DNA of 64,000 nt from the IMG/VR virus record IMGVR_UViG_3300012189_000001, positions 5,110 to 69,109 of that record; one strand, given 5' to 3'. The notes beneath the pieces are model-generated. The model worked only from the letters and a program-made list of their open reading frames with translations. It was not told the DNA's origin and ran no database searches. Both the position numbers and the translations under genes were made by a program. Shown here piece after piece: positions 3,907 to 60,451 of the stretch. The DNA comes from a virus. The first letter of the stretch is position 1; the number at the start of each line of letters is the position of its first letter.

Positions 3907-4824
3907 ATGGCAATTTTAGATCTTGCTAGTTTTCAGACATTAGTCGATAGACGTTATCGTGAAATAAAGGATTTTGAGCTTGCGTCTGTCACTGATCAAC
4001 TTCCCTTGTGGTTTGGGATGGAGACTTCAGATACGTTCGAAGAGCGCCGCTCGACTATCGGCGAACTTCCGATATGGGATACCTTCGGCGGTAATCTCCA
4101 GTACACACGTTTTTTCGAGCAGTACAATGCAGTGGCAACGCACATTGAGTTTACGCAGGGACTGCGTTGGACCCGTCGTATGATGGATGACGATCTCACG
4201 GGAATTATGCGTGGGGACCGTTATCGTAAGATGGTGCGTTCTGGTGTTATTACTCGCCAGATTCACGGCGCTCGTCTTTGGAACTTCGCGGCCTCGAATG
4301 ACTCCTTCTTCTATAATCGTTCTGAAGGCGTTCCTCTTGCCTCGGCAGCACACACTACTCGGGCAGACGGTGTGTCAACGGCAACCGGCTTCAACAACAT
4401 CACGGTATCCGATTTAGCTCCTACCTCGTATCGCGCTCTGCGTCAACAGATGCGGCGTTTTGCGAATGATCGCGGGTTCATCATCAATGTTATTCCTGAT
4501 TGCCTCGTTGTGCCAATTGAACTTGAGCAACGGGCTATGGAAATTCAGGACTCTCCCGGCGATGCAGACACCGCTCGTCGTTCCAGCAACCCGGAAGCCA
4601 GCACGGCGTCTATCGAAGTCCCTCTGTATTGGACGTCAACTACCAACTGGGCACTGTGCAATAAAGCATTGATGCATGAGAATCTGATTTGGTTTGACCA
4701 CACAACCCCAGATTTCAACAGCGTCGTGGATTTTGAAACTTTCCAGCTCAAGGCAAGTGGTTATATGCGCTATTCTTGGCTCGCGTTGGACTGGCGGTGG
4801 TTAAGTTACGGCAACGTTTCGTAA
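3907..4824 (+). CDS. Major capsid protein (HK97 fold, Mu gpT-like family)
   Basis: 305 aa with FTQGLRWTRRMMDDD, EGVPLASAAH, IINVIPDCLVVPIELE and GYMRYSWLALDWR, a pattern typical of gpT-like capsids. Confidence 0.85.
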   Translation: MAILDLASFQTLVDRRYREIKDFELASVTDQLPLWFGMETSDTFEERRSTIGELPIWDTFGGNLQYTRFFEQYNAVATHIEFTQGLRWTRRMMDDDLTGIMRGDRYRKMVRSGVITRQIHGARLWNFAASNDSFFYNRSEGVPLASAAHTTRADGVSTATGFNNITVSDLAPTSYRALRQQMRRFANDRGFIINVIPDCLVVPIELEQRAMEIQDSPGDADTARRSSNPEASTASIEVPLYWTSTTNWALCNKALMHENLIWFDHTTPDFNSVVDFETFQLKASGYMRYSWLALDWRWLSYGNVS

Positions 4825-8868: not shown

Positions 8869-8876
8869 GTGACGTC

Positions 8877-8903
8877 GGGGCACCTTAAGGTGCCCCTGCT
8901 TTT
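8877..8903 (+). terminator. Rho-independent terminator
   Basis: GGGGCACC-TTAA-GGTGCCCC stem followed by TGCTTTT. Confidence 0.7.
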
Positions 8904-8919
8904 CAGGGAGGATACGAAA

Positions 8920-9093
8920 ATTCCTGCAAAATCGAAGGCTCAGGCGCGGTTCATGTTCGCGGAGATGGGGCGTAAGAAGAAGGGCAAGAAGACAGAAACT
9001 GGTATGAGTGAAGATCAGTTGAAGGATTTCACGAAAACGAAACAAAAAGGTCTTCCCGAAAAAATAAAGAAAACTAAGAAGGGAAAGAAGTGA
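8920..9093 (+). CDS. Small basic DUF3008-like protein with a probable ATT start codon
   Basis: (I/M)PAKSKAQARF...MSEDQLKDFTKTKQKGLPEK resembles the DUF3008 pattern. GGAGG lies 8 nt before the ATT. Confidence 0.7.
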   Translation: MPAKSKAQARFMFAEMGRKKKGKKTETGMSEDQLKDFTKTKQKGLPEKIKKTKKGKK

Positions 9094-9251
9094 TGGCGAA
9101 GGCAATGAAGAAAGAAAAGCACGGCAAGATGTCGGGGCGTACTCCTCACGAAGAGCCACATGAGAAGACGGGTGGCAAGGGCATGATGGAGCAGAAGTCT
9201 CGCGGCAAAAAGGGTGGCAAGTCCAAGAAAATGAGTGGGAAATCCTACTAG
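9093..9251 (+). CDS. 52-aa Lys/Gly/Met-rich basic microprotein (not in ORF track)
   Basis: MAKAMKKEKHGKMSGRTPHEEPHEKTGGKGMMEQKSRGKKGGKSKKMSGKSY, coupled by TGATG. Confidence 0.7.
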   Translation: MAKAMKKEKHGKMSGRTPHEEPHEKTGGKGMMEQKSRGKKGGKSKKMSGKSY

Positions 9252-9265
9252 GGAGATGAGAGATC

Positions 9266-9436
9266 GTGGGGAAGACCTATAAGAACAAGTCATCTTCAAA
9301 GATGTCTGGACGTAGCAGTGAGAAGAGTGGTCGTACTGATGACCCCGATCTCGCTCTTGATATGTTGATGCAGAAGAAACAGAAGTCTACGAGTCGTAAG
9401 GGTATGAAACACAATCAATCGGGACGATCAGAATAA
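9266..9436 (+). CDS. 56-aa Lys/Ser-rich basic microprotein (not in ORF track)
   Basis: GGAG RBS, GTG start. MGKTYKNKSSSKMSGRSSEKSGRTDDPDLALDMLMQKKQKSTSRKGMKHNQSGRSE. Confidence 0.65.
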   Translation: MGKTYKNKSSSKMSGRSSEKSGRTDDPDLALDMLMQKKQKSTSRKGMKHNQSGRSE

Positions 9437-9437
9437 T

Positions 9438-9740
9438 ATGATTGATGAAAGACGTTACACGGTAGAAGACTGTACGGAAGAAGACACGATTTATCTTAAC
9501 GTCCACATATCTCAACAATATGTAGATGGGTATTGTCGTGTCGGCAACCGCATGCTTCAGGGACGATTGGAAGTGAATCCGGCGTGGTTTTCTTCGACAA
9601 ATCTTGAAAAGGCTATTGATACGCAAACGCGTTCGGGTCAGTTGAGCTTGAATGACATGCACGGTTTTGATTGGGAAGCCGATTACAATCTTGAAGATTT
9701 AAAATTGGATTATCCAGTCATTATAACTGAGATGGAATAG
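9438..9740 (+). CDS. Hypothetical acidic protein
   Basis: 100 aa; abuts the ATP-grasp gene. Confidence 0.6.
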   Translation: MIDERRYTVEDCTEEDTIYLNVHISQQYVDGYCRVGNRMLQGRLEVNPAWFSSTNLEKAIDTQTRSGQLSLNDMHGFDWEADYNLEDLKLDYPVIITEME

Positions 9741-11072
9741 ATGCCAAGATTTTTCCTGTGGAGCCCAAACGGTGATGGTGACTGTGTAAGTTACAGGCTT
9801 CATCTTGAGGGCGAAGATGTGGTATTGCGCATCGACGAGGCGTGGTCTCGGCCAAATCTTGAAGGAATTGTCGAGCACACAACGGCGTATCCACGAAAAG
9901 GCGATATCGTCATTTTTGGGTCGAGCAAACTCGGACAGGAAGCGGCGAAACTCCAAAAGGCAGGTTTTGGTGTTATTGGAAGTTGCCCGTATGCGGACGA
10001 TCTTGAAATGGACCGCTGGTTTTTTATTCAAGAATGTAAACGTCTCGGCATTAAAACCCCAGAAACACACCGATTTAACAGTTACGATAAAGCCCGTGCT
10101 TTTGTGCAACAACGGGGTGAGCGGTGGGTGTTTAAACCGTCTGGTGATCAGGAATCTGCCTGTACTTTTGTGGCAAAAGACGATGAAGAACTGCTTTTTG
10201 CGTTTGACCATCTTGAAAAGCAAATTCCAAAGGCTGATTTCCTCCTTCAGCATTTTGAAGAAGGTATTGAAATCTCTCTTGAAGGATGGTTCAACGGGCA
10301 CGATTGGATCAAAAACTCCTGGAATGCCACCAAAGAAACCAAGAAACTCATGGCCGGTGATATCGGACCCGCAACCGGATGTTCGTCAAATGCGGTATAC
10401 TTATTTGAAGGTACCCCGAGTTGGGTTCGCAAACTCCATGATAAATTCACTCCCATGCTTCGACGGGATAAGTACAAAGGCCCTTTTGATCTCAATATGA
10501 TCGTGACGAAGGATGCAATGTATGCATTGGAAGCAACGCCTCGTTTTGGCCTTGAAGGCATTCAAAACTTTATCGAACTCTGGCATACCTCAGCGGGCGA
10601 AACATTTGAAGAGTTGGCCGCTGGTACATTGGGGTCCTTTGACGTTGATACCGCTTCCCTCGCTGCCGCCGTTCGCTTGGCTGTAGGACCCTACCCATTT
10701 GGGAGTAAAGAACACAGGACATCCGGCGATATCCCCGTCCTCATTGATGAAGCTGATACATGGACATTATGGATGTCAGGTGTTTGGAAAGAAGATGATA
10801 TGTATTGTGTCGCTCCTACCGATGGTTGCATTGGTGCGCTCGTAGTGAAAGATACAACGATTGACAGAGCGGCAAAAACGTTGATGGAGACGGCAAAACG
10901 TATTCACATCCCTGATCTTATGTATCGCAATGATGTCGGCGCAGGGCATCTGAAGATGTGGCAAGAGTTAGATGGGTATGGTTTTGACATTCCCCCAGCA
11001 GTCGAGGCTATGCTCAAACGTAAGCCTGTGCTTGATCAGGGATCACCTTTTAAGAAAATGGTATGGGTGTAA
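9741..11072 (+). CDS. PurD (GAR synthetase)-like ATP-grasp ligase, divergent
   Basis: ADDLEMDR..CKRLGIKTP, WVFKPSG, KKLMAGDIGPATG (PurD KR..DGD.GPNTGG) and LEATPRFG (PurD EFN.RFG). Lacks the PurD GSGGREHA and GLAAGKGV motifs. Confidence 0.8.
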   Translation: MPRFFLWSPNGDGDCVSYRLHLEGEDVVLRIDEAWSRPNLEGIVEHTTAYPRKGDIVIFGSSKLGQEAAKLQKAGFGVIGSCPYADDLEMDRWFFIQECKRLGIKTPETHRFNSYDKARAFVQQRGERWVFKPSGDQESACTFVAKDDEELLFAFDHLEKQIPKADFLLQHFEEGIEISLEGWFNGHDWIKNSWNATKETKKLMAGDIGPATGCSSNAVYLFEGTPSWVRKLHDKFTPMLRRDKYKGPFDLNMIVTKDAMYALEATPRFGLEGIQNFIELWHTSAGETFEELAAGTLGSFDVDTASLAAAVRLAVGPYPFGSKEHRTSGDIPVLIDEADTWTLWMSGVWKEDDMYCVAPTDGCIGALVVKDTTIDRAAKTLMETAKRIHIPDLMYRNDVGAGHLKMWQELDGYGFDIPPAVEAMLKRKPVLDQGSPFKKMVWV

Positions 11073-12143: not shown

Positions 12144-12935
12144 GTGCGGCGATTACTTTATGCATTCATAACACTTGGTGCTCTACTCTGCGCATCTCAG
12201 GTGTTTGCCCAGCAATCAGTAGGCCCCATAACACTCCAATCGACAGGGGCTATTGGAAATGGTACTGCTCCTTCAACTGTGGGACTTACCCTCGCCACTG
12301 TGCAAGTTGTCGCGGCTGGAGGCTTTGATCGCACCTTGAATTTTGAAGTAACAGAAGATGCTACGAATTATCAAGCTGTATCTTGTTTAAATGTTTCAAC
12401 GAGTATGCAGTCAACGACAGCGACAGTAAGTGGTATTTATACGTGTTCTATTGGTGGGGCTCAGCTTTTTCGAGCGCGAACAAGTGATGGCGCTGCGAAT
12501 GGCACGTTGAAGGTAAGTGTTACATTCAATCAGGGTGTTATTTCTGCAGGCGTTGCATCAGCATCTTCGGGTACAGCTTCATCGACAACATCTGCGGTAT
12601 CGCCTGTTGAAGGGTCAACCCTCTTTAATACTTCTACCGTAAGTGCGGCAGCTACTGCTTTGACGACATCTATCGCGGGAGCTGCAACTACTCGCGTGCA
12701 CCTCTACAGTGCAAGTGCGTACTGCTCAGCAGGTTCAGCAACTTTGACAATCAAAGATGGAGTGGCAGGTACAACGATCTGGGTTTCGCCAGCCGGATTT
12801 GTCGGAACAGTGGTTACATCCCTTACGTGGACTGCCGGTTTGACAAGTACTACAGCGAATGGTATGGATATCGTGCTTGGCTCATGCGGTGGGGCGAATA
12901 CCGGAACATTACAAGTTGAAGCAGATAGATTCTAG
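12144..12935 (+). CDS. Signal-peptide-bearing structural-type protein
   Basis: MRRLLYAFITLGALLCASQVFA|QQ is a Sec/SPI-like leader; the mature part is Thr/Ser/Ala-rich and beta-type. Confidence 0.7.
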   Translation: MRRLLYAFITLGALLCASQVFAQQSVGPITLQSTGAIGNGTAPSTVGLTLATVQVVAAGGFDRTLNFEVTEDATNYQAVSCLNVSTSMQSTTATVSGIYTCSIGGAQLFRARTSDGAANGTLKVSVTFNQGVISAGVASASSGTASSTTSAVSPVEGSTLFNTSTVSAAATALTTSIAGAATTRVHLYSASAYCSAGSATLTIKDGVAGTTIWVSPAGFVGTVVTSLTWTAGLTSTTANGMDIVLGSCGGANTGTLQVEADRF

Positions 12936-13216: not shown

Positions 13217-14737
13217 ATGCGAAAATGGTTAGGCAGTCTTCTCATTATTGGGATGATGCTTGTTGCTCAGTCTGTGCAGGCGCAAATAGTGTCACAAATA
13301 CCGTGGACGGCTGGATACGGCGGTACGGGATTTTCGACGTATACGATTGGTGATATGCTGTATGCCGATACAGCAAGTACATTGGCTAAGTTAGTGAGTC
13401 CCGTGACAGGACAAGTTATCACATCTGGTGGAGCAGGAGTCGCACCCGCGTGGAGTGCTAGTCCAACACTTACAACAAGTTTGACAACACCGTTGTTTAT
13501 TGGTGGGACAGCAGTTGGCTCAACACTTACATTCAAGTCAACAAGTGCTGTTGGGACAACCGACGCTATTATTTTTCAAGTTGGAAATAACGGCGGAACT
13601 GAGTCAATGCGCATTATCGACAGCGGCAATGTAGGTATTGGGCAGACAGTGCCGACTGCTTTACTCGATATTAAGGGAACTGCTGCGGGCGCAGAAATGA
13701 TCATAGGTCCTTGGGCTGGAAGTACGGCCTACATGGCAGTTGGCCTCGCTAATTCTGTTGCAGCAACTACCTACAACTTTATAAGTAGTACAACTGACAC
13801 GAATTTGTATCTCAACAGACCAACGGGCAAGGATATTGCTTTTCGAGAGGCCAATCAGGGTAATATCAATGCAGTAATCTTTAGAGGTACGACCGGATTC
13901 GTCGAAATATCGGGGGACGCGGCAAAGACTGTTAGTATGGCCCGCAATCCGGTTGCAAATACCGCAGGAAATGCTCTCACTGTGCAGTCCGGTTCGGCTA
14001 CCTCTGCTGCGACCGATAAAAATGCAGGTACCCTTGTTTTGGCGTCAGGTCTTTCGACAGGTACAGGATCGGGAGGCATAAATCTACAAACATCCTCACA
14101 ACAAGCAACGACAAATACGACTGATAATGCAGTTGCTACACGGCTCGCACTTGACGGATACGGGCATATAACTCACACTCCTGCGGTAGGCACTGCCACT
14201 GTCGCGGCGAGTTTTACGCTCACAGGAGCGGCACACACCGCATTAACTGCGAGTACTGAGCGCTTCGATACCAACTTCAATAGTGCTCGTACTGTGCAAT
14301 GGGCAACAGGGGCATTGACAACTCAACGCTTTAACCTCTTCCAGGCTCCTACAGTCGGTTTTGTCGGCGGCAGTACAATAACGAATACGTGTACCCTCTG
14401 TGTAACTGGAGCTCCAGTATCGGGCACGAATGCAACACTTTCAAGTACGCATGGCTTGCTTATCCAGGCGGGAGCAGTGACAGCAGCAACAAATGCCTTT
14501 GGATTAACGGCAAATGCTCCTACAGGAGGTACCACCAATTACGCTGGGCAGTTTATTGGGGAAGTTCTTTTGGGTTCGACAGCTTTTGCAAGTCTCGGCA
14601 CGCCAGCAAATGGGGCAATAACGTTTTGCAATGATTGTGATGCCCCGACGCTTGTTGATAGTACTTGCACTAGTGCAGGGGCCAAAACAGGTAGTTTTGC
14701 GGTGCGCGCAAACGGAGCCTGGAAGTGCATTTCATAG
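13217..14737 (+). CDS. Signal-peptide-bearing tail-fibre-like protein
   Basis: MRKWLGSLLIIGMMLVAQSVQA|QI leader, GGTG..YTIGDMLYA and RIIDSGNVGIGQTVPTALLDIKG fibre motifs, Cys-rich tip. Confidence 0.75.
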   Translation: MRKWLGSLLIIGMMLVAQSVQAQIVSQIPWTAGYGGTGFSTYTIGDMLYADTASTLAKLVSPVTGQVITSGGAGVAPAWSASPTLTTSLTTPLFIGGTAVGSTLTFKSTSAVGTTDAIIFQVGNNGGTESMRIIDSGNVGIGQTVPTALLDIKGTAAGAEMIIGPWAGSTAYMAVGLANSVAATTYNFISSTTDTNLYLNRPTGKDIAFREANQGNINAVIFRGTTGFVEISGDAAKTVSMARNPVANTAGNALTVQSGSATSAATDKNAGTLVLASGLSTGTGSGGINLQTSSQQATTNTTDNAVATRLALDGYGHITHTPAVGTATVAASFTLTGAAHTALTASTERFDTNFNSARTVQWATGALTTQRFNLFQAPTVGFVGGSTITNTCTLCVTGAPVSGTNATLSSTHGLLIQAGAVTAATNAFGLTANAPTGGTTNYAGQFIGEVLLGSTAFASLGTPANGAITFCNDCDAPTLVDSTCTSAGAKTGSFAVRANGAWKCIS

Positions 14738-15661: not shown

Positions 15662-16333
15662 GTGACCACCCTTGCAGTTCTTGTCAACGAACTTCGACCA
15701 CGAGCACAGCGGCTGGGTCTCCAAGATCCAGTCACTGGGCTCGTCGATGATAGCGAATTATCAACATATCTCGTAGAATCAATGCGATATTTGGCGAATC
15801 GTTATCAGTTGCAGCATTTCATACGGATTAATCGCCAGCTCTTCATTACCCAAGCCAATGTTGAGCAATATGATATCCCAGATAACTACGGTTTCTGGTC
15901 ACCAGAAGAAACCTATCGCTCGGGCTTGTCTGTAACAAATACGGATGGTACGCAGACAACGAATTTGACGTATTACAATCCGGCAAAGTTCAACCTAGTA
16001 CGGAGTCCTGGGCTGACCAACAAGCCCTCATGGTTTACGGTAACGCAAGGATTGATATACTTTGCACCAATACCGGATGCCTCCTACATTATTGAGGCTA
16101 TTGAGCGACAGGTGCAGGACGGAACAGATATCCCCGTGCCTTATGCAGAGGCAATTAAGATTGAAGCCCTGCTGAAACTGGCATCTGACACCGGAAAAGT
16201 TACACCTTTGCTTGTCGATGAGCACACACAGATTCTGCGGACCCTTGTAAATGGGGAGTCTCGTTTTCGCCAGAGATTCTACACCTCACGCGAGCGTTTA
16301 GGGTTCAGTCGCTATAGGCGATATGGCCTGTAA
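15662..16333 (+). CDS. Head-tail adaptor/tail ring protein, paralogue 1
   Basis: YDIPDNYG...[25 protein letters not shown] adaptor motif. Confidence 0.7.
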
Positions 16334-17462: not shown

Positions 17463-18074
17463 ATGTTGAAATTTTCAGACCTTGTAGACATCATGATCCA
17501 GCGAGCAGAGCGTCTTGGTCTCGTCGAGCCCGATTCGAAAAAAGCCGACGCGGCAGAGATTGAACTTTATCTATTTCAAGCGCTCCTCGACATTACTGAC
17601 GGCGGGGATTTGCCTGCCTACATGATACAAAATACGTCCATTGCTACGACAACAATCGGAGTGGCACAGTATCCTCTTCCCGCAGATTTTGGGCGTCTGA
17701 TTACCCCCCGTGTGCAGAACAAGCGGGGTATCTATCTATTCGACACGTTTGAAATAGACGACTTGACGTATATTGAACCGAATGCGTTTGCCCGACAGGT
17801 ATCCACAACGAATGCCAAGCCGGAGCAGTTTACGGTCACACAGCGGAATCTATTCGTGTTCCCAACACCTGACAAAAACACCTACACGATTCGCGGTCTC
17901 TATATCCAACGTGTAGATCGACCCGAACTTGATGATGAGGTATTGATTATGTACCCCACAGCCCTCATTGATGAAGGGCTTTTTCGTCTGGCGTCGGACA
18001 TGAATCGCGCTACCCAAGCACTTACAATAATGCGCACAGAAGCTCTGGCGCGACTTACAGGGGGATCGAGGTAA
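17463..18074 (+). CDS. Head-tail adaptor/tail ring protein, paralogue 2
   Basis: RAERLGL and YPLPADFG...KPEQFTVTQRNLFVFPTPDKNTYTI; clearly similar to 15662. Confidence 0.75.
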   Translation: MLKFSDLVDIMIQRAERLGLVEPDSKKADAAEIELYLFQALLDITDGGDLPAYMIQNTSIATTTIGVAQYPLPADFGRLITPRVQNKRGIYLFDTFEIDDLTYIEPNAFARQVSTTNAKPEQFTVTQRNLFVFPTPDKNTYTIRGLYIQRVDRPELDDEVLIMYPTALIDEGLFRLASDMNRATQALTIMRTEALARLTGGSR

Positions 18075-21181: not shown

Positions 21182-21847
21182 GTGAATCTTGGCGCTCTTG
21201 TAACTCTCGTGGAACAGAAATTAGGCAGTCAAACTACTTTTTATACCGATGCTGAAATCGTAGACCATGGGATTAACCCCGCGCAGCGACTTATATGTCT
21301 GACCTATCCTATGCTGAATTATGTGCGTACAACGGTAGCTGTCACGACGGATCAGCCAATTATTGACTTGCGAGAACTGCTTGACGGAAGCCTGAATATT
21401 ATTGGAAACCGATTTCGCCATGTGCGCCGTGTTTCTCTGGGCAATGTGACAGACAACCTTTCAACGCCCACTGCGGCAACTGGAGAGTTGCAAAAATTGG
21501 AACAGACAACAGTGAAACGCCTCGCCGGGCGTAATGACTGGTTCGCTTTGCACGGCGAAGTGCGAAAGTATTGGATGTGGGGTCAATACTTCCTTGGTGT
21601 GTATAAACGACCCATCGCTGCGACAACCTTGACGATCATATACAGCGCCGCTCCTGCTCCTCTTGCTCTTGCAGCACCAACAGGCATCCCAGACATTCCC
21701 GCTGTCTACCACCCTGTTATCGCGGAAATTGCCACGGGTTTGCTGATTATGAAAGAAGGTGCTCCACAGACAGAGCGTGGATTGGCCCGAATTAAAGCAG
21801 GATTAAATCTCGCACTACAAGATCCTGTCGCAGAAAGGCTAGGATAG
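21182..21847 (+). CDS. Adaptor/tail ring protein, paralogue 3
   Basis: MNLGALVTLV...GEVRKYW...LGVYKRP...PDIPAVYHPVI. Confidence 0.65.
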   Translation: MNLGALVTLVEQKLGSQTTFYTDAEIVDHGINPAQRLICLTYPMLNYVRTTVAVTTDQPIIDLRELLDGSLNIIGNRFRHVRRVSLGNVTDNLSTPTAATGELQKLEQTTVKRLAGRNDWFALHGEVRKYWMWGQYFLGVYKRPIAATTLTIIYSAAPAPLALAAPTGIPDIPAVYHPVIAEIATGLLIMKEGAPQTERGLARIKAGLNLALQDPVAERLG

Positions 21848-22491
21848 TGACCACTCTTGCCAATGAAATCACCCGTGTGCAACTCATGCTTCAAGATATT
21901 GATGTATCAGGCGGTAATATCACCCTGATAACTCAGTCAATCACTGAAGCTGCTCAGAAACTTGCGCGGCTAAATTACTTTCCACAAATCAGTTGGCTGC
22001 AAGGGATCACAGGCCAGAGTATCTACACATTGCCCGCCACCAATGTGAATATATCACATGTATTGTACAATGAAAAAGTTTTACGCTACGTTACTGAATC
22101 TTCCTTTGATCGACATATCACTGGATGGGAAAAACTCATAGGGGAACCTCGATACTGGACATACGACAACATTACACGAAATACCGTGCGGATCATCCCT
22201 GCCCCTTCGCGCACCGGAGCGGTTGTGGTGTTTGATCCTGATGACCCACTCGCCAATGCGGGTGTGAATAATTTAATTGTGTTCGCATCTGATGATGTGA
22301 GCGCTAACCTTGGCGCTGTTGTTATGCCCACGCTTCTTGATTATGATGACTTTATCGTGTATTATGGGGTATATTTACACGCAATGAAGGAAACAACTCA
22401 ACAGAATCAGCCTGTAGCCAATGCTGCAAACTTACTAGCAGAAATGTGGCTTCAACTCATGGAAAAGAGGAAAGCTAGTGGCCCGAACTAA
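21847..22491 (+). CDS. Adaptor/tail ring protein, paralogue 4
   Basis: GQSIYTLP...GEPRYWTYD...VRIIPAP. Confidence 0.65.
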   Translation: MTTLANEITRVQLMLQDIDVSGGNITLITQSITEAAQKLARLNYFPQISWLQGITGQSIYTLPATNVNISHVLYNEKVLRYVTESSFDRHITGWEKLIGEPRYWTYDNITRNTVRIIPAPSRTGAVVVFDPDDPLANAGVNNLIVFASDDVSANLGAVVMPTLLDYDDFIVYYGVYLHAMKETTQQNQPVANAANLLAEMWLQLMEKRKASGPN

Positions 22492-37838: not shown

Positions 37839-38402
37839 CTACGCTTGTGCAAGAGTGATGTCTTGTTGTCCCTGATATTTGCCTTTCTTATCTGCGTAAC
37901 TCACATTACAGATACTGGTCGCGGTGTGAAAAGTGAGCTGTGCAATACCCTCATTTGCGTAAATCAGCACGTCATTTTTGCCCGTATTGCTGATTTCCAG
38001 CGTTAAATACCCTTCCCATTCGGGCTCCAGTGGTGTGACATTGACAACAACGCCACATCGGGCATAGGTAGACTTCCCCGTGCATATCCCCATAATGTCA
38101 CGCGGAATCTTGAAGTACTCAATACTACGTGCCAGCACAAAGCTATTAGCACTCAGCACAAATATGGGTAACGAGAACTTCATAAACTGCCGCTCATTCG
38201 GATACTTCGGATCAATAGACATCGGATGTGCAATAGGCATCATAAACTCTTCACTAAGCCGGATATCGTACCCATAACTACTAAGCCCGTAGCTAATAAG
38301 CGGCTTTGCTCCCTGTTTACGAACTTGGAAACCGACAAACGGATCAATCATATTGTGAAAAGTGACTCGATGGATGATATCTTGATCTGAAAGTACGCTC
38401 AC
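37839..38402 (-). CDS. dcd: dCTP deaminase
   Basis: ISYGLSSYGYDIRL, GKSTYARCG, NVTPLEPEWEGYLTLEISN, YANEGIAQL, SYADKKGKYQGQ. Confidence 0.95.
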   Translation of the reverse strand: MSVLSDQDIIHRVTFHNMIDPFVGFQVRKQGAKPLISYGLSSYGYDIRLSEEFMMPIAHPMSIDPKYPNERQFMKFSLPIFVLSANSFVLARSIEYFKIPRDIMGICTGKSTYARCGVVVNVTPLEPEWEGYLTLEISNTGKNDVLIYANEGIAQLTFHTATSICNVSYADKKGKYQGQQDITLAQA

Positions 38403-38569
38403 TCTTCTTCCCCTTCTTCGTCGTTTTCATAGAGCCAATCGCCACACGCCAGGCAGTCACCGATCTCTCTGCTCTCACTTACGCATTGCTCACACATCAG
38501 ACACTCACAATAAAACGCCCTCACAGATACACCCCTTTTTCCACAGTGCTCACACGAATCAAGTGTCAT
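38399..38569 (-). CDS. Small Cys-rich zinc-finger protein
   Basis: CEHC, CEC, CEQC, CLAC. Confidence 0.55.
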   Translation of the reverse strand: MTLDSCEHCGKRGVSVRAFYCECLMCEQCVSESREIGDCLACGDWLYENDEEGEEE

Positions 38570-38948
38570 TGCGCACCTTCCAAGCAGGGAAGTCCTCAAT
38601 TAAATCTAGTAAGTTGTGAAAAACTGGCATACCTAAGGAACGCGCCAGTTCCATTTCTTTTTCCACACCCTTACTATAACCCGGCAGCACAAGTAAGGCA
38701 TCACAAGCACGCAAAAAATGGCAATCAAGCTCGTACCAATACTCTGGTAAAACTTCCGGCATGATAACCTCATTGTGAGCACTATGCACATGCGGAGCGA
38801 AAAATCCGTACCCAAGTCTCGCCAACGCAGCACTCACTTCGTGCACACGGGTGATATTGGCCTGAATTTTGAAGTAACTCGCCGCGTCGTGGGTGTACTC
38901 ACCCACATACGGGCCAGAGATGAACACATAGTGACGTCGTTGTGCCAT
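38559..38948 (-). CDS. Nucleoside 2-deoxyribosyltransferase-like protein (DUF1937/DUF4406-like)
   Basis: FISGPY...FAPH...LRACDALLVLPGYSKGVEKEMELARSLGMPVF. Confidence 0.75.
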   Translation of the reverse strand: MAQRRHYVFISGPYVGEYTHDAASYFKIQANITRVHEVSAALARLGYGFFAPHVHSAHNEVIMPEVLPEYWYELDCHFLRACDALLVLPGYSKGVEKEMELARSLGMPVFHNLLDLIEDFPAWKVRNDT

Positions 38949-59551: not shown

Positions 59552-60451
59552 TTAGTTATATGCCTCAGCTTCTTCCCGCGTCAAGAAAAAGTGAATACCT
59601 CCCCCGCATTCCACCCATCTGTCCTCATTCCACTTATCACAATGCACACGACTACCAACTCTGTAAACTATTGTAGGGTTATGAATGGAAATACCCTCCT
59701 CCCCCCCAAAAATTCCAATGACATCTACATACGCAGCCCTACATTTTCTGCTTATCGCATTTGAACGTTTTGCATCCGCTGGAATGGATACTTGGACAAT
59801 GACGTCACCTCGACATTTTTTCCATCCGATAAAAGCACCTTCAACAGGCACAATAGTTAAACGCGCAACTGTGAGAGCAGTGAGCTTTGCACCACTCAAG
59901 CTAGCACCACGCAGATTTGCACCAATCAAATCTGCACCCCTCAAATCTGCCCCACTCAAATCTGCGCCACTCAAATCTGCGTAACGCAAATCTGCACCAC
60001 TCAAATATGTGCCACTCAAGCTAGCACCACTCAAATCTGCGCCACTCAAGCTAGCACCACTCAAATATGCGTAACGCAAATCTGCCCCACTCAAATCTGC
60101 ACCACTCAAGCTAGCACCACTCAAATCTGCGTAACGCAAATCTGCACCACTCAAATATGCGTTACGCAAATCTGCACCACTCAAATCTGCGCCACTCAAA
60201 TCTGCACCACTCAAATCTGCGTTACGAAGATTTGCCCCACTCAAATATGCGTTACTCAAGCTAGCACCACTCAAATCTGTGCCCTTCAAGCTAGCACCAC
60301 TCAAGCTAGCACCACGCAGATTTGCACCAATCAAATCTGCACCCCTCAAATCTGCCCCACTCAAATCTGTGTTACTCAGATTTGCGCCGGATAAAACTTT
60401 TTGAGCAATCGTTACAAGCACTTTACCGTTTCTATCAAGAATATCCATCAC
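59552..60451 (-). CDS. Pentapeptide-repeat protein with a C-terminal DUF5758-like domain
   Basis: About 33 A(D/S/Y/N)L(S/R)G repeats (15-bp DNA repeats); FIGWKK...RKCRA...RWVECGGGIHFF. Confidence 0.9.
   Translation of the reverse strand: MMDILDRNGKVLVTIAQKVLSGANLSNTDLSGADLRGADLIGANLRGASLSGASLKGTDLSGASLSNAYLSGANLRNADLSGADLSGADLSGADLRNAYLSGADLRYADLSGASLSGADLSGADLRYAYLSGASLSGADLSGASLSGTYLSGADLRYADLSGADLSGADLRGADLIGANLRGASLSGAKLTALTVARLTIVPVEGAFIGWKKCRGDVIVQVSIPADAKRSNAISRKCRAAYVDVIGIFGGEEGISIHNPTIVYRVGSRVHCDKWNEDRWVECGGGIHFFLTREEAEAYN

Follow-up and report, generated by a model that had tools for sequence, protein, structure and literature searches.

The window analysed here, a stretch of 64,000 nucleotides from a phage genome that is complete at 69,109 bp, carries a closely packed gene cassette within the late virion operon of the + strand. 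First comes a strong terminator hairpin, then three Lys-rich micro-ORFs, an acidic 100-aa ORF and a 443-aa ATP-grasp ORF, an arrangement that had been reported in a preliminary description of this DNA and that both the sequence and hairpin folding confirmed. The intrinsic-terminator-like hairpin with its T-run (8877..8904, + strand) lies directly after the stop codon of a 558-aa ORF; our terminator scan placed a stem of 8 pairs (7 GC) with a 4-nt loop at 8877-8896, with the T-run following, and the fold was far more stable than chance (ΔG of -19.4 kcal/mol, z = -3.92, with 0/200 shuffles equally stable). The terminator-consensus scan overall showed no enrichment (9 sites vs. 8.9 expected).

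Micro-ORF 1 (8920..9093, or from 8869 with GTG, + strand; K 32%, net charge +14) probably starts at ATT. The micro-ORFs had been described as 52-57 aa long; they are present, and the first reaches 57 aa only with this non-canonical ATT at 8920, which lies 8 nt past AGGGAGG, while the alternative canonical GTG at 8869 falls within the terminator. The ATT start is supported by a close relative (locus L107, ligase 79% identical), because the homologue there has ATG at the equivalent place. The product resembles DUF3008 (PF11450; 20.3 bits, E 6.4e-4, profile positions 31-56 of 57), a likeness and not a membership since it lies below the 24-bit Pfam gathering score, and a homologue search returned 4 proteins, with a word index that is weak for short low-complexity queries. 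Micro-ORF 2 (9093..9251, + strand; 52 aa from ATG 9093, or 53 aa from GTG 9090; K 26%, Gly 17%, net charge +11) has its ATG overlapping the stop of micro-ORF 1 (TGATG), and its counterpart in L107 is diverged and 44 aa long. After a 14-nt gap with AGGGAG comes micro-ORF 3 (9266..9436, + strand; 56 aa; K 18%, Ser 20%, net charge +8), which ends in GRSE, as does its 55-aa counterpart in L107 with an identical C-terminus. Micro-ORFs 2 and 3 have a K-M-S-G-R motif in common and look like paralogues.

The acidic ORF (9438..9740, + strand; 100 aa; D+E 20%, net charge -12; C-terminal ..TEME) begins 1 nt after micro-ORF 3, and its stop abuts the start codon of the ligase (TAG-ATG). It had no family match, PHROGs giving only a weak hit to phrog_36326 (E 0.0085), and its counterpart in L107 is 80 aa long with 36% identity. 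The 443-aa ORF (9741..11072, + strand) encodes a PurD-fold ATP-grasp ligase of a phage-specific family with intact catalytic residues. In PHROGs, neither the ligase nor any of the three micro-ORFs or flanking ORFs had a corresponding family.

Upstream of the ligase, on the same strand, are TerL, portal and MCP; downstream of it come adaptor paralogues, a fibre-like protein and an SLT internal protein. The ligase gene adjoins neither TerL nor portal in this window. The adjoining ORFs (558, 345, 263 and 506 aa) had no family or PDB match in profile and PDB searches, so the placement inside a virion module, as initially proposed, holds by gene order and not by the identity of the immediate neighbours. 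That no other pur gene accompanies the ligase was corroborated: purF, purN and purM were not found in the complete genome, in a search whose controls were positive in 12-14/14 genomes, and other Pur families had no match among the 58 window ORFs scanned. Nor did the window contain a stand-alone HAD gene.

We found that the ligase has the four-domain N-B-A-C fold of PurD (AF2 model with pLDDT 92.7, and Foldseek). The 14 highest-listed Foldseek matches in the PDB were all PurD chains (13 entries; TM 0.66-0.75, 17-20% identity over 423-449 aligned columns), and hhalign against 8 true PurDs gave a probability of 99.84 over 394 columns with 21% identity. PurD (EC 6.3.4.13; TIGR00877; PDB 2QK4, 2YW2, 2XCL, 1GSO) and the ligase are therefore alike in fold over ~440 columns, and they have in common the ATP-grasp Lys residues, G-D-x-G-P-x-T-G, E-x-x-x-R-F-G, a P/G-Y-P motif and a C-terminal Y/F-R-x-D motif; the acyl-phosphate chemistry is presumably the same. 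The ATP-grasp domains of PurT, PurK, biotin carboxylase and CPS, which belong to the same fold class, were the next-best structural and profile matches, much weaker in Foldseek than PurD (E 1e-15 to 1e-17), and NCBIfam CPSase models matched 10/39 family members. TIGR00877 matched all 39 of these members (best E 6.2e-27); the ligase itself scored 78.4 bits and did not reach the 288-bit equivalog cut-off, vs. 460-543 bits for 13 true PurDs. Among the Pfam domains, GARS_A was above its cut-off (34.5 vs. 27 bits), GARS_C was under it (19.4 vs. 34.8 bits) and GARS_N had no match in the ligase. In a phylogeny, a check that the preliminary description had proposed, the family stood apart from 12 PurDs on a branch of ~2 substitutions per site (SH-aLRT 100).

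The residue pattern follows the same division. The ATP-grasp core was located as first described (VFKP at 130-133, KK..GD.GPATG at 201-213, E.TPRFG at 264-270), and alignments verified that the GSGGREHA and GLAAGKG loops of PurD are missing. Residue replacements were taken from MAFFT and hhalign alignments, and their roles were interpreted through passages on human GARS, in which Arg13/Glu14 form the anion site and a ribose contact (PMC2978367). The N-terminal loop S8..G11-D12-G13 (9762..9782, + strand) replaces PurD G-S-G-G-R-E-H-A, so that Arg-Glu becomes Asp-Gly; MAFFT and hhalign concordantly align D12 with the invariant Arg of PurD, and this position is D or E in 114/131 family proteins. 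At K132-P-S-G (10134..10145, + strand) the ATP-binding Lys is retained, and P-S-G plus a variable loop replaces the B-loop. The stretch E199-x-K201 ... G-P-x-T-G-C214-x-x-N (10335..10391, + strand) replaces DHKR ... GPNTGGMG: the Asp of DHKR becomes E199 (E-x-K in place of DHKR), and TGGMG becomes T-G-C-x-G-N, with Cys214 present in 130/131 family proteins and serving as an intein insertion point in other members. Inteins occur in active-site motifs of some other family members. The metal and acyl-phosphate motifs, D250-x-N252 and E264-x-T-P-R268-F-G-L-E-G (10488..10559, + strand), retain R268 and replace the N, D and E of PurD EFN.RFGDPE; in RFGDPE, Y/L takes the place of D and A/G that of E, the acid being displaced by one place. 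The Arg of PurD GGRVL becomes V, I or L, and both alignment methods found the APGN motif and the VGPE.PL helix replaced as well. Across distinct family proteins, K132, Q170, E199, K201, D250, N252 and R268 are present in 131/131 and E264 in 130/131. With its ATP-binding lysines, metal acids and acyl-phosphate Arg conserved, the ligase is predicted from sequence to be an active ATP-grasp enzyme.

Automatic annotation and viromics catalogues would make of such a gene a divergent but genuine GAR synthetase, that is, a purine auxiliary metabolic gene. PurD is the best match in every library, JGI names the relatives phosphoribosylamine-glycine ligase, and both the retention of the glycine-carboxylate Arg (R268) and the conservative Asp to Glu change at DHKR agree with such an activity. 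We nonetheless conclude that the ligase is not a PurD equivalog, because of its low score against the equivalog cut-off (78 vs. 288 bits) and because the PurD signature residues are replaced (the N-loop Arg-Glu, APGN, VGPE.PL, the B-loop, the RFGDPE acids and the GGRVL Arg, at 17-21% overall identity). Further against GAR synthesis, the gene is viral, sits among late genes without pur pathway partners, and has no phage purF to supply PRA, whose half-life is given as 5 s in the GARS passages (PMC2978367). A genuine GAR synthetase is thus very improbable, the label 'purine metabolic gene' is probably wrong for this ligase, and the preliminary description was right to reject it.

The distribution of the family argues in the same direction. 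At E<=1e-30 the family comprises 1,049 representatives, or about a thousand clusters at 50% identity, and it is overwhelmingly viral: atlas clusters are 80-97% Viruses, and a motif search of 185,579 species genomes of cellular organisms yielded 10 MAG contigs. MAG binning is also the one hint at soil Acidobacteriota as possible hosts. The family occurs in at least 500 metagenome stretches and in 334 IMG/VR stretches; the latter required an alignment-based scan, as an IMG/VR scan with the single protein returned no relative. Searching GenBank phages with tblastn gave 5 weak matches and no clear cultured member, the only cultured-phage match being Pseudomonas phage Y6 (a weak match, 23% identical across 59% of the query), and BFVD held no close viral model of the ligase (best TM 0.46).

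We then asked what the ligase might act on. According to the preliminary description, this is a peptide-ligation cassette, in which the ATP-grasp enzyme takes the Lys-rich micro-ORF peptides, the acidic 100-aa protein or both as substrates; in one version, the C-terminal Glu of GRSE and TEME would be activated and linked to lysine side chains, as RimK, LysX or graspetide enzymes might do. Translational coupling connects the five ORFs, and the cassette recurs in L107, where four basic micro-ORFs and the 80-aa acidic ORF lie upstream and two peptides retain the C-terminal GRSE; in locus L106 (ligase 60% identical), basic ORFs of 69 and 60 aa lie upstream. Judging from the alignments, Asp12 in place of a phosphate-binding Arg would also suit a cationic acceptor. 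However, L107 and L106 are the two closest relatives with upstream sequence and the only ones with basic micro-ORFs there, synteny in such close relatives is explicable by inheritance alone, and no homologue of the acidic ORF was seen in L106. Upstream ORFs vary across the wider family, and in the 159 loci inspected we found no recurrent upstream partner, whether basic, acidic or with a C-terminal Glu/Asp. As the Lys-rich ORFs are conserved in the closest relatives only, they offer no evidence of being substrates, and micro-ORF 1 moreover resembles the stand-alone DUF3008, if below its cut-off. A complex prediction of the ligase with the acidic protein, run without controls, scored 0.00 and speaks neither for nor against binding.

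The peptide-ligation proposal drew on an analogy with other ATP-grasp enzymes. RimK, LysX, tubulin-tyrosine-ligase and graspetide (microviridin-type) enzymes form ATP-dependent amide bonds on protein or peptide carboxylates. They belong to a different ATP-grasp superfamily branch from this ligase, whose profile matches are of PurD and CPS type; RimK- and graspetide-type families were the best match for no member of family alignment A1. Ligation of the cassette's own peptides is therefore quite unlikely. We also considered the amidoligase/GATase/ATP-grasp module of LUZ24-like phages, PA11, PhiRIO-1 and PhiM6 (Iyer et al. 2009, cited in PMC3890496, PMC6256558), whose phage ATP-grasp enzymes are likewise proposed to form peptide bonds. 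In the relevant passages of the citing papers, the module is placed in early or nucleotide-metabolism regions, next to amidoligase and GATase partners, and its ATP-grasp protein is ~290 aa vs. 443 aa here (PMC3890496, PMC6256558). This window contains none of the amidoligase/GATase partner genes, and we set the module aside as a different system. The V-score paper names the ATP-grasp superfamily in general terms only.

Another reading takes the gene to be a moron whose product is a ligase for a small molecule or nucleotide metabolite, making an amide-linked metabolite in the infected cell (possibly an amino sugar, nucleoside or polyamine bearing an amino-acyl group), with the late operon as a convenient insertion site. 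Within this fold class, the enzymes characterised so far (PurD, PurK, PurT, biotin carboxylase, CPS) are all known to act on small molecules and not on proteins. In 8/168 loci, and in the database proteins P0100 and P0117, the ligase is fused to a putative HAD phosphatase domain that resembles Pnkp/GmhB. The motifs that define HAD phosphatases (DxDGT, T/S, K, DD) are invariant in 7/7 fused sequences, and 7/7 fused domains matched PHROG 1238 and PHROG 415 (polynucleotide kinase; best E 8e-10). The top Foldseek match of the fused domain was the T4 Pnkp phosphatase (prob 0.91, E 0.05, from a model with a pLDDT of only 72), and the domain had no Pfam match at E 0.01 and no PDB sequence match. Of 301 Acidobacteriota genomes searched, 9 contained bacterial cousins of the ligase, which were 41-100% identical to the query cousin, and at 4 loci these cousins lie between two MFS transporter genes. 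A Tricorn protease and a metallopeptidase adjoining one bacterial cousin were not conserved in the other 8, and this lead was dropped. Together, the HAD fusions and the MFS-flanked cousins fit a small, possibly phosphorylated metabolite, and the fusions lend some weight to the nucleotide role that the preliminary description had kept as a fallback. The fusion is limited to one subclade, and the window ligase lacks the HAD domain. Against the metabolite reading, no stand-alone HAD gene lies near unfused ligases.

Of 62 distinct loci flanked by at least 2.5 kb on each side, 44 have a recognised head or virion gene on the same strand, so that the homologues are, as anticipated, linked to structural and packaging genes, whereas the basic peptides expected alongside are not recurrent. 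In a lineage defined by its portal, the gene lies between TerL and portal in 44/50 distinct loci (20 intact and 24 degenerate copies), a figure that may be biased because the portal alignment was built from loci first found via the ligase. The gene is missing from the other 6/50 and is thus not indispensable, which would fit a moron, and TerL-portal slots and operon ends are common moron sites too. Yet its position is kept across portals of 34-60% identity. The degenerate copies form a single clade (SH-aLRT 98) that has lost the Lys, the Mg ligands, the Arg and the whole B domain while keeping its length and place, with dN/dS of 0.06-0.085 in the 7 pairs with estimable dS. By these losses and ratios they are predicted to be catalytically dead derivatives under strong purifying selection. 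A dead metabolic enzyme should instead decay, and we consider a moron-borne metabolite ligase somewhat unlikely.

We therefore favour, with a probability of about 0.5, a competent PurD-derived ATP-grasp amidoligase of a separate viral family that is not a GAR synthetase and whose job is tied to head or virion assembly. The head/virion role is suggested because the family lies between terminase and portal in a whole lineage, and because a dead, B-domain-less clade is kept there under strong purifying selection. The protein keeps the ATP, Mg and acyl-phosphate residues (K132, K201, D250, E264, R268) and has lost both candidate phosphate-binding arginines of PurD (N-loop Arg to Asp12; GGRVL Arg to a hydrophobic residue). 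Its gene is co-transcribed with the late virion genes, at a dose that the upstream terminator should lower. The enzyme would turn a small carboxylate, which is probably amino-acid-like, into an acyl-phosphate and then join the acyl group to an amine carrying no phosphate; candidate acceptors are a virion protein, the Lys-rich peptides and a component bound to the packaged DNA, and the job would serve head or virion assembly rather than host purine supply.

Retention of the dead clade implies that the protein binds some component of the morphogenesis machinery. A more specific version, which we put forward tentatively and regard as unlikely in its full form, is that a PurD-derived head-morphogenesis component binds portal, terminase or procapsid, and that active members, the present ligase among them, use ATP to attach an amino-acid-like group covalently to a virion-associated amine; the binding function would then survive in the dead clade, and the target in this phage could be co-translated Lys-rich internal peptides. 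For the recruitment of a purine enzyme to a new task, there is a precedent in the PurZ of dZ-genome phages, which derives from PurA but serves 2-aminoadenine synthesis and is thus a phage-specific purine-enzyme paralogue with a new substrate. PurZ differs in its fold and reaction, in having kept nucleotide binding and in sitting with replication genes, and no DNA-modification link for the ligase was found here.

Viromics papers treat purD/GART as a viral auxiliary metabolic gene (PMC11360552, PMC11097641). In passages of an ocean catalogue, phosphoribosylamine-glycine ligase (purD/GART) is more than 2.8-fold virus-enriched and is counted with the pathways for which viral copies exceed cellular ones in number (PMC11360552), and in a passage on a snow virome purD is one of the metabolic genes given for complete viral genomes (PMC11097641). 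If most viral 'purD' genes belong to the family described here, the view that phages boost host purine synthesis through purD would be unfounded. In one phage lineage the family's place between terminase and portal is almost fixed, and this position, the pseudoenzyme clade and the inteins point to an apparently important step in uncultured soil and freshwater phages. If the morphogenesis reading is true, an ATP-grasp ligase would perform an enzymatic post-translational maturation of the virion, and the PurD-derived family would be a hitherto unrecognised component of tailed-phage head assembly.

The 443-aa ATP-grasp protein (window 9741..11072, + strand) is PurD-like in fold yet is not PurD. 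Pfam returned GARS_A (34.5 bits), GARS_C under the cut-off and no GARS_N, and the top PDB sequence match was B. subtilis PurD (E 1.9e-11, residues 70-408). When its AlphaFold2 model, built from 39 family sequences (pLDDT 92.7), was compared with the PDB by Foldseek, the 14 highest-listed matches were all PurD (TM 0.66-0.75, 17-20% identity), followed by biotin carboxylase, PurK and CPS. On TIGR00877, the NCBI purD model, the protein scored 78.4 bits vs. a cut-off of 288, with the same outcome for all 39 family members; 13 real PurDs of Acidobacteriota genomes scored 460-543 bits. A maximum-likelihood phylogeny against true PurD, as suggested in the preliminary description, set the family apart, with a branch of ~2 substitutions/site (SH-aLRT 100) dividing 12 PurDs from 45 family members.

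The replaced residues were located in an alignment whose register is shared by MAFFT and hhalign (hhalign probability 99.84, 394 columns, 21% identity), with PurD residue roles taken from PMC2978367 and PMC8880213. The PurD N-loop G-S-G-G-R-E-H-A becomes S-x-x-G-D-G: Asp12 (D or E in 114/131 family proteins) stands in place of an Arg (human Arg13) that, according to PMC2978367, helps hold sulfate or phosphate, and Gly replaces the Glu proposed there to orient the ribose. Missing too are APGN and the VGPE.PL helix that in PurD caps this anion site; the B-loop GLAAGKG is replaced, DHKR is E-x-K, TGGMG is T-G-C-x-G-N (Cys214 in 130/131 family proteins), and EFN.RFGDPE retains its Arg but has lost N, D and E. 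GGRVL, whose Arg is the sole basic residue at PurD's other proposed PRA-phosphate site, carries V, I or L at that position in the family. Because K132, Q170, E199, K201, D250, N252 and R268 occur in 131/131 family proteins while the PurD acceptor-site residues are replaced, we read the protein as a putatively active, still acyl-phosphate-forming ATP-grasp enzyme whose acceptor pocket would no longer suit a phosphoribosyl compound. The complete phage genome has no purF, purN or purM, and PMC2978367 gives a PRA half-life of 5 s. With a score of 78.4 vs. 288 bits, PurD residues replaced and these partner genes absent, the earlier assertion that this is not a purine auxiliary metabolic gene is very probably right, and it is highly improbable that the protein, for all its likeness to PurD in fold, is a GAR synthetase.

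The family is large and overwhelmingly viral. In a set of 1.84 billion proteins its profile matched, at E<=1e-30, 1,049 cluster representatives (50% identity); it also matched 334 stretches of IMG/VR and no fewer than 500 of JGI metagenomes, and ESM-Atlas neighbours fell into clusters of 50-170 members that were 80-97% 'Viruses' and lacked GARS_N. Searching 185,579 species genomes by motif, which detects solely members with the family's active-site motifs, gave 10 loci, every one on MAG contigs (four binned as Acidobacteriaceae, the rest as Planctomycetota, Saccharibacteria and further groups). Among GenBank phages, five weak matches and no cultured family member turned up, and PHROGs and BFVD held nothing close to the protein; the literature covered, with subscription journals outside it, offered only catalogue entries for viral purD/GART and unrelated phage ATP-grasp systems. 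A chromosomal cousin (L198:5662-6951 and L201-L208), present in 9/301 Acidobacteriota genomes searched, reached 323 bits on the family profile yet lacks GDG, EGW and Cys214; two MFS transporter genes flank it in four loci, one on each side.

Intein-like insertions of roughly 310-445 aa, bearing LAGLIDADG-type endonuclease motifs, occur in five long members, placed precisely at the junction of G213 with the invariant C214 (database proteins P0229, P0231 and P0161) or inside the E-x-T-P-R-F-G motif (P0190 and P0256), which marks these motifs as the functional core. A putative C-terminal HAD domain of ~105 aa is fused to the ligase in 8/168 loci and in the database proteins P0100 and P0117, a single clade in the tree. 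Its DLDGT, TAR, KD and YDDR motifs are invariant, 7/7 domains match PHROGs 1238 and 415 (polynucleotide kinase; best E 8e-10), and its model, of modest confidence (pLDDT 72), has T4 Pnkp phosphatase as top structural match, a weak one (E 0.05).

Open reading frames, fold energy and composition all bore out the layout first described for the cassette (window 8920-11072). Past the end of a 558-aa Gly/Ala/Thr/Val-rich ORF, a terminator-like hairpin (8877-8896) with a T-run (ΔG -19.4 kcal/mol, z -3.92, 0/200 shuffles as stable) is followed by a ribosome-binding site, AGGGAGG, and then by micro-ORFs of 57, 52 and 56 aa (18-32% Lys), the acidic 100-aa ORF and the ligase, consecutive stop and start codons abutting or overlapping. 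At 57 aa, micro-ORF 1 requires an ATT (8920), 8 nt past the perfect AGGGAGG (window 8905-8922), which seems a rare, non-canonical start; its homologue in L107, a locus whose ligase is 79% identical, has ATG at the equivalent codon. The strongest sigma-70-like match of the region (11/12, TTGGCA-16-TATAAT) lies antisense over the ligase start (window 9747-9720, - strand) and is probably due to chance, since promoter-like sites are fewer here than in shuffles (8 vs. 12.3).

In L107, the 890 bases upstream of the ligase contain four basic micro-ORFs plus an acidic ORF of 80 aa in the same order, tightly packed and with visible protein-level conservation. Two basic ORFs (69 and 60 aa) lie ahead of the 60%-identical ligase of L106, with no evident homologue of the acidic ORF upstream; there, a ~220 nt tandem duplication (L106:8436-8880) gives two ORFs with a near-identical ~30-aa segment. 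Given this conservation, the whole-codon indels and GRSE C-terminus common to window and L107, and the basic ORFs in L106, the micro-ORFs are real, fast-evolving genes of a cassette conserved within a small clade. Micro-ORF 1 has a weak likeness to DUF3008, and its homologue search returned four proteins only. Beyond this clade (159 loci), the ORF ending right before the ligase is TerL or one of assorted unrelated small ORFs. Peptides and enzyme are tied by adjacency in close relatives only, and the dedicated peptide-ligation cassette originally proposed, acting on the Lys-rich peptides, is unlikely; just as conceivably, the peptides are basic virion proteins of an internal or DNA-associated kind.

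The other proposed link, to structural genes, held among the relatives. In 72 IMG/VR loci the commonest same-strand neighbours were the terminase large subunit directly upstream (24) and the portal directly downstream (21); in 18, an internal virion protein of 1,600-1,780 aa whose N-terminus is lysozyme-like lay upstream on the same strand, and in 12 a major capsid protein came five genes downstream. Profiles made from these neighbour clusters were then applied to loci flanked by 2.5 kb or more on each side, and 44/62 distinct loci had a recognised same-strand head or virion neighbour. Among 80 IMG/VR loci drawn by portal similarity (34-60% identity), 50 distinct ones had upstream room: 20 held an intact ligase, 24 a degenerate homologue and 6 neither, a 44/50 share possibly biased by a portal alignment derived from ligase-containing loci. 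All 44 copies sit between TerL and portal.

The virus record itself is complete (69,109 bases, direct terminal repeats; the window covers 64,000). On the + strand, TerL and portal (within the 5 kb preceding the window) are followed by an HNH endonuclease with the major capsid protein (3907-4824), several ORFs without annotation and then the cassette; downstream lie four SU10-adaptor paralogues (15662-16333, 17463-18074, 21182-21847 and 21847-22491; PF24175, E 1e-6 to 1e-10), a fibre-like protein (Laminin_G_3) and large internal proteins, of which one has an SLT domain. The ligase is also followed by two ORFs rich in Ala/Thr/Ser/Gly (12144-12935 and 13217-14737), without matches to families or PDB, whose N-termini resemble signal peptides, with a basic residue and a hydrophobic stretch ahead of A-Q-Q or A-Q; this is unusual among virion proteins, and similar ORFs follow the ligase in L106. 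Replication genes occupy the - strand, including family-A DNA polymerase, ribonucleotide reductase, helicases and a dCTP-deaminase-like protein. The last lies near a DUF4406/DUF1937 (nucleoside deoxyribosyltransferase-like) gene (37839-38402 and 38559-38948, both - strand), a possible nucleotide-pool or DNA-modification module; no thymidylate-synthase-like gene was found among the window ORFs scanned. A pentapeptide-repeat protein with a C-terminal DUF5758 (59552-60451, - strand) lies among the early genes; some members of this class can mimic DNA.

The degenerate homologues (24 distinct loci, L217-L281; e.g. L279:2281-3348 and L269:3151-4233) score 86-195 bits on the family profile, lack K132, K201, C214, D250, N252, E264 and R268, and in about two thirds have the B-domain region deleted; W183, G247, the Y-D pair and the C-terminal R-x-D are retained (L279 protein inspected by eye). 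They form one clade nested among the active enzymes encoded between TerL and portal (SH-aLRT 98) and evolve under strong purifying selection, dN/dS being 0.06-0.085 in the 7 pairs with estimable dS (the other 20 pairs are saturated). The gene could instead encode a small-molecule ligase for which late operons are just a parking place, an account we consider possible though doubtful; a metabolic enzyme with its catalysis lost would not be expected to persist this way. Our preferred reading, at a probability of about 0.5, is that the protein is an active amidoligase from a PurD-derived, phage-specific family with a function tied to the assembly of head or virion. The persistence of the dead clade under purifying selection is the best available hint that the family may have a binding role among morphogenesis proteins.
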